From: a virus
Lineage: Duplodnaviria > Heunggongvirae > Uroviricota > Caudoviricetes
DNA: 12,566 bases
Virus record (IMG/VR): IMGVR_UViG_2534681831_000011
Reading direction: 5' to 3' (one strand)
Made by a program: the position numbers and the translations under genes. The notes under the pieces are model-generated. The model saw only the letters and a program-made list of their open reading frames with translations, was not told where the DNA came from and made no database searches. Numbering within the stretch: position 1 is the first letter of the stretch; each line of letters opens with the position of its first letter. This document shows positions 1,839 through 2,183 of the stretch, piece by piece.

Positions 1839-2183
1839 ATGAAGAAAAAATACGAACTGGTTGTTAAAGGGATAAATAATTACCCGGATAAGATTACTGT
1901 TACTGTGGCACTGGAAATTGGTGGGTATCCGTCACTGTTGTTGCCAGATGTGGCGATTAGTCTTGACCGTACTGAAGGTGCCACGCTGGAGTTTTACGAA
2001 GCTGAGGCGAAAAAGCAGGCGAAGCAGTTTTTCATGGATGTTGCTGCCGGGTTATGTGAAGGGGATGGTCCGTTGCCGGAAAAGCGGCCCATCATTTTAG
2101 AGGCGCAGGATGTGTTGATAACCTACAGAGGAAAACTACCGGGAATAATTACGGGTTCTCTGAAGACTCCACCGCTGGCCTGA
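1839..2183 (+). CDS. Hypothetical 114-aa protein, no recognisable family
   Basis: ATG 1839 sits 4 nt after the holin stop, with GGGGAGAG (1824-1831) as a Shine-Dalgarno-like sequence. Composition is protein-like, with no signal peptide or transmembrane segment. It lies between holin and endolysin, where canonical lysis cassettes have nothing. Confidence 0.6.
   Translation: MKKKYELVVKGINNYPDKITVTVALEIGGYPSLLLPDVAISLDRTEGATLEFYEAEAKKQAKQFFMDVAAGLCEGDGPLPEKRPIILEAQDVLITYRGKLPGIITGSLKTPPLA

Follow-up and report, generated by a model that had tools for sequence, protein, structure and literature searches.

In the cryptic prophage Qin of Escherichia coli K-12, the small gene ydfR (b1555, P76160) stands between a holin and a lysozyme gene; the order in MG1655 is essQ (holin), a gap of 4 nucleotides (nt), ydfR, a 4-nt overlap, rrrQ (lysozyme), and rzpQ/rzoQ. 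Here, we examine a gene of the same Pfam family (PF07041, or DUF1327) that occupies the same slot in a 12,566-nt stretch of Caudoviricetes DNA (IMG/VR record IMGVR_UViG_2534681831_000011). This stretch, at its full length, is referred to as the window, and the gene encodes a protein of 114 amino acids (aa).

The sole functional lead for the family comes from work on the K-12 protein. In a bacterial two-hybrid (BACTH) screen by Gopel et al. (RNA Biol 2026; PMC13232886), the first 72 codons of K-12 ydfR came up three times, and with Rne(1-597) as partner both residues 1-72 and full-length YdfR gave a BACTH signal. Rne(1-598)-FLAG eluted together with Strep-YdfR, the eluate was rich in DNase-resistant nucleic acid, and RNA co-purifies (PMC13232886). 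The gene showed no expression under standard conditions, and its overexpression changed few transcripts and left growth unimpaired (PMC13232886). The authors liken binders of this kind to Srd of phage T4, which binds the N-terminal half of RNase E (PMC13232886).

The gene is a catalogued member of the YdfR/DUF1327 family

An earlier note, made from the sequence of the window alone, had described an uncharacterised gene without a recognisable motif, wedged into a lysis cassette. The lack of a motif did not survive database comparison: the protein is a full-length match to PF07041 (E 4.7e-46; 155.4 bits versus a cutoff of 25), with residues 1-112 aligned to profile positions 1-92 of 93. It also falls within PHROG 406 (phrog_406; category "unknown function"), and identical proteins are named "YdfR family protein" in RefSeq; NCBIfam models and the PDB searched by sequence gave no match. 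The wedged arrangement is likewise already present in the reference E. coli genome, because MG1655 has the essQ-ydfR-rrrQ order.

The K-12 and window proteins are 47% identical in their N-terminal domains (residues 1-74). They differ in their tails, which are of the SEKVESYLQHQYSFKIENPANKHERPHHKYL type in the 103-aa K-12 protein and PEKRPIILEAQDVLITYRGKLPGIITGSLKTPPLA in the window protein, and in the junction that follows: the stop codon of K-12-type ydfR overlaps the endolysin ATG (ATGA), while the window type has a 50-nt spacer instead. Residues Y5, Y53, and E54 (the latter two forming an (F/Y)YE motif) are invariant or nearly so across distant members of the family and are present in the window protein (alignments A3 and A8).

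The window is the late region of a Shiga toxin (Stx)-phage-like lambdoid prophage, 97% identical to phage YYZ-2008 over 8.9 kb, and the gene shares the placement that marks the family, the late region of Enterobacterales lambdoid prophages. The protein is 100% identical to the product of an open reading frame (ORF) in Stx phages H-19B (AF034975), BP-4795 (AJ556162), and Stx2a_WGPS2 (NC_049941) and in many Stx1a and Stx2c phages; YYZ-2008 gp44 has 98% amino acid identity to it. The first three of these phages and YYZ-2008 have the same cassette and neighbours as the window, with an endolysin gene that is intact there and frameshifted in the window. The exact protein sequence occurs on at least 990 contigs of a public protein collection. 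Related DNA was found in 3,159 of 5,426 complete E. coli genomes (58%), with up to 8 copies per genome, which places the gene among the commonest unexplained E. coli prophage genes. The DUF1327 family as a whole is small, with 93 representatives when 1.84 billion proteins are clustered at 50%, and in a survey of one genome per species the E. coli-type form was confined to Escherichia and Shigella. K-12-type ydfR loci in two Firmicutes-assigned metagenome-assembled genomes (L262, Veillonella parvula; L264, Bacillota) are probably mis-binned E. coli prophage contigs, i.e., contamination. The family protein P0176, used as a query against viral contigs, found nothing.

The gene is thus already catalogued as a YdfR/DUF1327 prophage gene and is not new. 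Its discovery from the window adds little, because family, position, and exact sequence are already in public databases. To this the present analysis contributes the exact boundaries of an insertion/deletion (indel) and the takeover of a coupled start, a mosaic breakpoint at codon ~75, the acidity of the N-terminal domain across the family, and the finding that distant members occupy varied sites in late operons, where a convergent ORF recurs.

Evidence for a constrained coding gene placed for coupling to the holin

We compared 240 related IMG/VR loci, which fall into three subtypes: A (window type), B (63% identical, with the same tail), and C (K-12 type). All 240 begin with ATG, and 237 encode a protein of canonical length (114, 116, or 103 aa). 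The start lies exactly 4 nt past the stop codon of a P21-type holin gene in 238 of 239 loci, and a lysozyme gene follows in 235; such regularity goes well past what chance would produce. The ratio of nonsynonymous to synonymous divergence (dN/dS, Nei-Gojobori) is 0.26 for the N-terminal domain between subtypes, both A-B and B-C, and 0.11 to 0.18 for the tail within subtypes. These ratios indicate that the ORF is under purifying selection; because start, Shine-Dalgarno sequence, and frame are conserved as well, a noncoding explanation is very unlikely. The claim that a real 114-aa gene lies within the lysis cassette is confirmed by these figures.

In the window, the holin gene ends with TAA at positions 1832-1834, 4 nt (AGCG) before the ATG of the DUF1327 ORF. 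The Shine-Dalgarno sequence GGGGAGAG is placed within the 3' end of the holin gene as expected for translational coupling, and both the spacing and the good Shine-Dalgarno sequence are as the earlier note had described them. Its statement that the protein has no signal peptide and no transmembrane segment also holds: the maximum Kyte-Doolittle value in a 19-residue window is 1.18, versus 1.83 for the holin, and the N terminus (MKKKYELVVKG...) is not signal-like as judged by sequence and hydropathy. The protein is therefore predicted to be cytoplasmic.

The gene is an optional insert that takes over the coupled start

Matches to a 1.4-kb stretch of the cassette were found in 419 phage records, only 101 of which encode a DUF1327 protein. 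In 24 of 45 records sampled at even spacing from the 419, the same holin and endolysin genes (86 to 94% identical) are adjacent, lying within ~880 bp versus 1,276 bp. These 24 records are mostly Stx2a phages, together with PA5, P13803, POCJ13, and ST2-8624. The synteny survey that the earlier note had suggested thus finds one holin-endolysin pair both with and without the gene, and the difference is a clean ~396-bp indel with defined boundaries between otherwise homologous cassettes.

In Stx2a_F451, which lacks DUF1327, the endolysin ATG lies 4 nt past the holin TAA, behind the same GGGGAGAG. From this junction it follows that the ~396-bp insert takes over the coupled start and that the endolysin ATG is pushed behind the 50-nt spacer. 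No obvious Shine-Dalgarno sequence was seen in that spacer before the endolysin ATG. The base composition of the insert is unlike that of its flanks: the fraction of guanine plus cytosine (GC) is 0.446 in the N-terminal domain and 0.32 in the spacer, versus 0.522 in the holin and 0.546 in the endolysin gene.

Presence or absence among collinear genomes and deviant base composition are both marks of a moron. A third mark, a flanking promoter and terminator of its own, is missing; the gene uses the holin-embedded Shine-Dalgarno sequence. No promoter-like site was found on the plus strand between positions 1290 and 4400, and the only strong terminator-like hairpin there (1547-1573; 11-bp stem, 7 of its pairs GC) is found within the late unit just 5' of the holin start; with the TTTTTGTTTT that follows, this element spans 1547-1583. 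Together, these comparisons provide good support for viewing the gene as an optional late-operon accessory, or moron, dispensable for lysis and separate from the core lysis machinery.

An acidic N-terminal domain and an exchangeable tail

Two AlphaFold2 runs gave agreeing models of the 114-aa protein. The N-terminal domain is predicted to form three β-strands and a helix, β(5-14)-β(18-27)-β(37-43)-α(50-73), with predicted local distance difference test (pLDDT) values of 77 to 95 for these blocks in the model with the deeper alignment. For residues 74-114, no secondary structure is predicted (pLDDT 50 to 57). In Yersinia, Citrobacter, Pantoea, and metagenomes, the distant family members measure 72 to 99 aa and consist essentially of the N-terminal domain alone. 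The isoelectric point of this domain is 5.07 in the window protein and lies between 4.4 and 5.4 in 20 of 21 family members; such family-wide acidity would be expected for a protein-binding rather than a nucleic acid-binding module. A fold search with the predicted structure gave no significant match. Across Pfam, PHROGs, NCBIfam, PADLOC, and the PDB sequence and fold searches, no homology to a characterised lysis accessory protein appeared.

The tail behaves as a separate module. It occurs on an unrelated N terminus in another protein (P0155), and the K-12 type lacks it. Between subtypes A and B, synonymous divergence (dS) falls from 1.65 in the N-terminal domain to 0.215 in the tail and downstream, which places a recombination breakpoint near codon 75 (window positions ~2055-2065). 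Lambdoid module exchange thus occurs inside the ORF, at the domain boundary. We had considered whether the near-invariant tail reflects exceptional constraint, an idea only partly upheld: with so low an A-B dS, its conservation at the protein level is partly due to recent shared ancestry via recombination.

Long variants and convergent reading frames

Some loci carry DUF1327 variants of 176 to 183 aa (P0006 and P0107 among them) in the same slot. Window residues 1-112 are collinear with these and up to 97% identical. The long variants have in addition a helical C-terminal extension of ~65 aa and a gap of ~320 nt with a reverse-strand ORF of ~86 aa. The window lacks this ~465-bp segment (extension plus reverse-strand ORF), to whose right end its 50-nt spacer corresponds.

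More distant members occupy varied late positions: past the tape-measure gene in Citrobacter, in the M/L tail-gene gap in Yersinia, in the L/K and I/J tail-gene gaps, and between the Q antiterminator and the holin gene in Pantoea. In loci from Citrobacter, Pantoea, Yersinia, and metagenomes (L002, L003-L006, L007, L009, L010, and L011-L014), DUF1327 is always followed ~20 to 50 nt past its stop codon by a small convergent ORF of 74 to 182 aa on the reverse strand; long-variant E. coli loci (as in L266, 3479-3739) have one as well, and the window does not. We rejected the idea that this ORF is a conserved partner in a two-gene system. Only the L002 and L003 ORFs (38%) and those of L011 and L012 are related to each other; the others, including the E. 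coli long-variant ORF, are unrelated. None had a Pfam or PADLOC match.

Layout of the window

The window begins with the 3' end of a SASA/NanS-p esterase gene, followed by genes for the P21-type holin, the DUF1327 protein, a phage lysozyme, an Ant-like protein, and Rz/Rz1 (Table 1). Beyond these lie DUF3950 (minus strand), HNH, the small and large terminase subunits, a protease-capsid fusion, and portal genes.

TABLE 1 Coordinates of the lysis cassette and of the parts of the DUF1327 gene in the window
Feature	Position	Strand	Basis or remarks
P21-type (pinholin-class) holin, 68 aa	1628..1834	+	PF04971 "Bacteriophage P21 holin S," E 1.2e-32; PHROG holin
Shine-Dalgarno sequence GGGGAGAG within holin 3' end, serving ATG 1839	1824..1831	+	Sequence; kept in all three subtypes
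DUF1327/YdfR-family coding sequence, 114 aa	1839..2183	+	ATG start, TGA stop at 2181-2183; PF07041, phrog_406
N-terminal core domain, codons 1-74	1839..2060	+	AlphaFold2 models; stand-alone homologues of 72 to 76 aa
C-terminal tail module, codons 75-114 (GDGPLPEKRPIILEAQDVLITYRGKLPGIITGSLKTPPLA)	2061..2180	+	Low-confidence structure, mildly basic
AT-rich spacer, 50 nt, GC 0.32	2184..2233	+	Between DUF1327 stop and endolysin ATG
Signal-arrest-release (SAR)-type endolysin (phage lysozyme), frameshifted	2234..2768	+	PF00959; alignment to YYZ-2008
Ant-like gene (P22_AR_N + ORF11CD3)	3039..3608	+	Pfam/PHROG; second accessory gene in the cassette, in the endolysin-spanin gap
Rz i-spanin, with embedded Rz1 o-spanin (3982..4167)	3762..4229	+	PF03245 and PF06085

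The endolysin begins with a hydrophobic, Gly/Ala-rich segment, MNAKIRYGLSAAVLALIGAGA, compatible with a SAR endolysin. Its gene carries a 1-nt insertion in the window (an extra G at ~2296): the window reads GGGGCGGTC, whereas YYZ-2008 and the consensus of related loci have GGGGCGTC. The frame opened by the ATG consequently stops at 2306-2308, 24 aa in, and an ORF at 2283..2768 holds the catalytic part. Of 73 comparable loci, 69 have an intact endolysin (177 aa), and the frameshift in the window reflects either prophage decay or an indel introduced by sequencing. An extra A at 691 relative to YYZ-2008 makes a second frameshift, which leaves the 3' portion of the SASA/NanS-p-type esterase gene (1-1182) in two ORFs, 3-692 and 496-1182.

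The position of the Ant-like gene is kept in YYZ-2008 and Stx2a_F451. At the far end of the window, 3' of the portal gene, a 407-aa ORF (11310-12533) contains at least three tandem units of ~50 aa (…P.PRDGRDYDPEVL.QAVNDAVANIP.PADGKS.TPDDVRPMLEQMVKEAVSHIP…). An Rfam search of the whole window gave nothing informative.

Discussion

Family identity and accessory status are well supported; the mechanism we infer. Our tentative proposal, possible but short of an even chance, is that the gene encodes a late accessory protein whose acidic N-terminal domain binds the catalytic half of RNase E and modulates RNA decay or processing late in infection. The gene would share the late (pR') transcript and be translated through coupling to the holin gene, so that its protein would be produced at the time of lysis and at a rate close to that of the holin, while the insertion would shift the endolysin start off the coupled site. 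The β3-α N-terminal domain would then serve as a protein-binding module that docks on the N-terminal catalytic half of host RNase E. This docking step is modelled on residues 1-72 of K-12 YdfR, and for the window subtype the RNase E target is presumed. Late in infection, RNase E-dependent decay or processing of phage late transcripts or host transcripts might in this way be modulated in a manner resembling T4 Srd, and the variable C-terminal tail may add a second, subtype-specific contact. Srd, RraA/B, Dip, and RapZ were not among the Pfam, PDB-sequence, or fold-search matches, no direct pairwise comparison having been made.

Unlikely, in our estimation, is that the protein instead controls lysis timing from the cytoplasm, as an antiholin-like regulator comparable to T4 RIII or P1 LydB. 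Such a protein would bind the charged cytoplasmic C terminus of the pinholin and delay or sharpen its triggering, and the displaced endolysin start might in addition, or instead, cut endolysin synthesis. In Escherichia loci the gene always stands directly 3' of a P21-type holin gene and coupled to it (238/239; also MG1655), its product would appear when and where the holin does, and an endolysin ATG behind a 50-nt spacer without a Shine-Dalgarno sequence could by itself alter the holin:endolysin ratio. A ydfR deletion is also listed in an envelope-integrity (leakage) screen that Gopel et al. cite, solely among primary hits in the supplements and with no follow-up (PMC3879167), and we do not rely on it; the Keio cassette lies directly upstream of rrrQ, so a polar effect on that gene is a plausible alternative explanation. 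Against a regulator of lysis, the gene is absent from many Stx2a phages whose holin and endolysin are the same, distant family members lie in tail-gene clusters far from holins, the subtype B N-terminal domain is paired with two diverged holin types, no lysis-category family in Pfam or PHROGs is similar, and ydfR overexpression was without a growth phenotype (PMC13232886).

The holins themselves bear on this question. The dual start of the phage 21 holin yields an antiholin isoform. The window holin has only the 68-aa start (…DIHQ-MEK…, 1608-1640) and no M71 dual start, a single-start form seen in ~30 of 80 window-type loci. The dual start M71/M68 (MYQMEK or MKSMDK) is found in the majority of related holins, that of Stx2a_F451 included. 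We considered whether DUF1327 substitutes for the missing isoform and rejected this idea: most DUF1327-linked holins keep M71/M68, as does that of F451, which lacks DUF1327, and presence of the gene is uncorrelated with loss of the dual-start isoform. With its optional presence, scattered family context, and lack of a compensation pattern, a dedicated antiholin role is weakened, but the coupling to the holin, invariant in Escherichia, still speaks for it.

It is similarly doubtful that the gene is a moron directed at the host or at competitors and unconnected with RNase E or lysis, for instance one that serves superinfection exclusion or anti-defence or that belongs to a small two-gene module with the convergent gene. 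The presence/absence polymorphism, the varied late-operon insertion sites, a GC content below that of the flanks, the copy number of up to 8 per genome, and the small convergent ORF directly following the gene in distant genera and long-variant E. coli loci would all suit such a role. The reverse-strand ORFs are, however, not one family and are absent from the window, the DUF1327 gene there lacks its own promoter and terminator, and late-only expression would be odd timing for exclusion or anti-defence. A PADLOC search with the window protein, the other subtypes, and the reverse-strand neighbours gave no match except two at chance level (E ~0.02). The candidate roles listed in the earlier note therefore fare unequally: the late-expressed moron fits best, given the ~396-bp indel and the distant members located elsewhere; the lysis-timing or antiholin role has lost ground; and a defence or anti-defence role found no PADLOC match. 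Finally, direct binding of phage or host RNA by a degenerate β3-α core resembling a double-stranded RNA-binding domain (dsRBD) or RNase H, with RNase E co-purifying only via that RNA, is quite improbable. The α-β-β-β-α fold with a basic RNA-binding face that marks a dsRBD was not found.

In Stx1, Stx2c, and some Stx2a phages, the gene is co-transcribed with the Shiga toxin and lysis genes. If our proposal of RNase E modulation, or else modulation of lysis timing, is true, the gene would influence the toxin and phage output of an induced Shiga toxin-producing E. coli cell, an influence that the natural presence/absence polymorphism among Stx phage lineages makes directly testable. More speculatively, and improbably as matters stand, DUF1327/YdfR proteins might be phage RNase E modulators, produced alongside the holin from late operons of Stx and other lambdoid prophages, that tune how stable the long late transcript (stx, lysis, and morphogenesis genes) is or how it is processed, with the convergent-ORF layout of the longer and distant versions acting as a switch between lysogeny and late expression; lysis timing, burst size, and Shiga toxin release would then be affected.

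T4 RIII and P1 LydB are small soluble proteins encoded beside the holin gene and made at the same time. The DUF1327 protein differs from them in that it is not obligatory for its holin and is also found away from holins. With T4 Srd it shares the character of a small cytoplasmic phage protein, and the K-12 homologue, like Srd, binds the N-terminal half of RNase E. The likeness is an analogy of action only: Srd is encoded by an early gene of a virulent phage, whereas the window gene is a late gene of temperate phages, and Srd stimulates host mRNA decay, whereas YdfR overexpression has little effect on the transcriptome.
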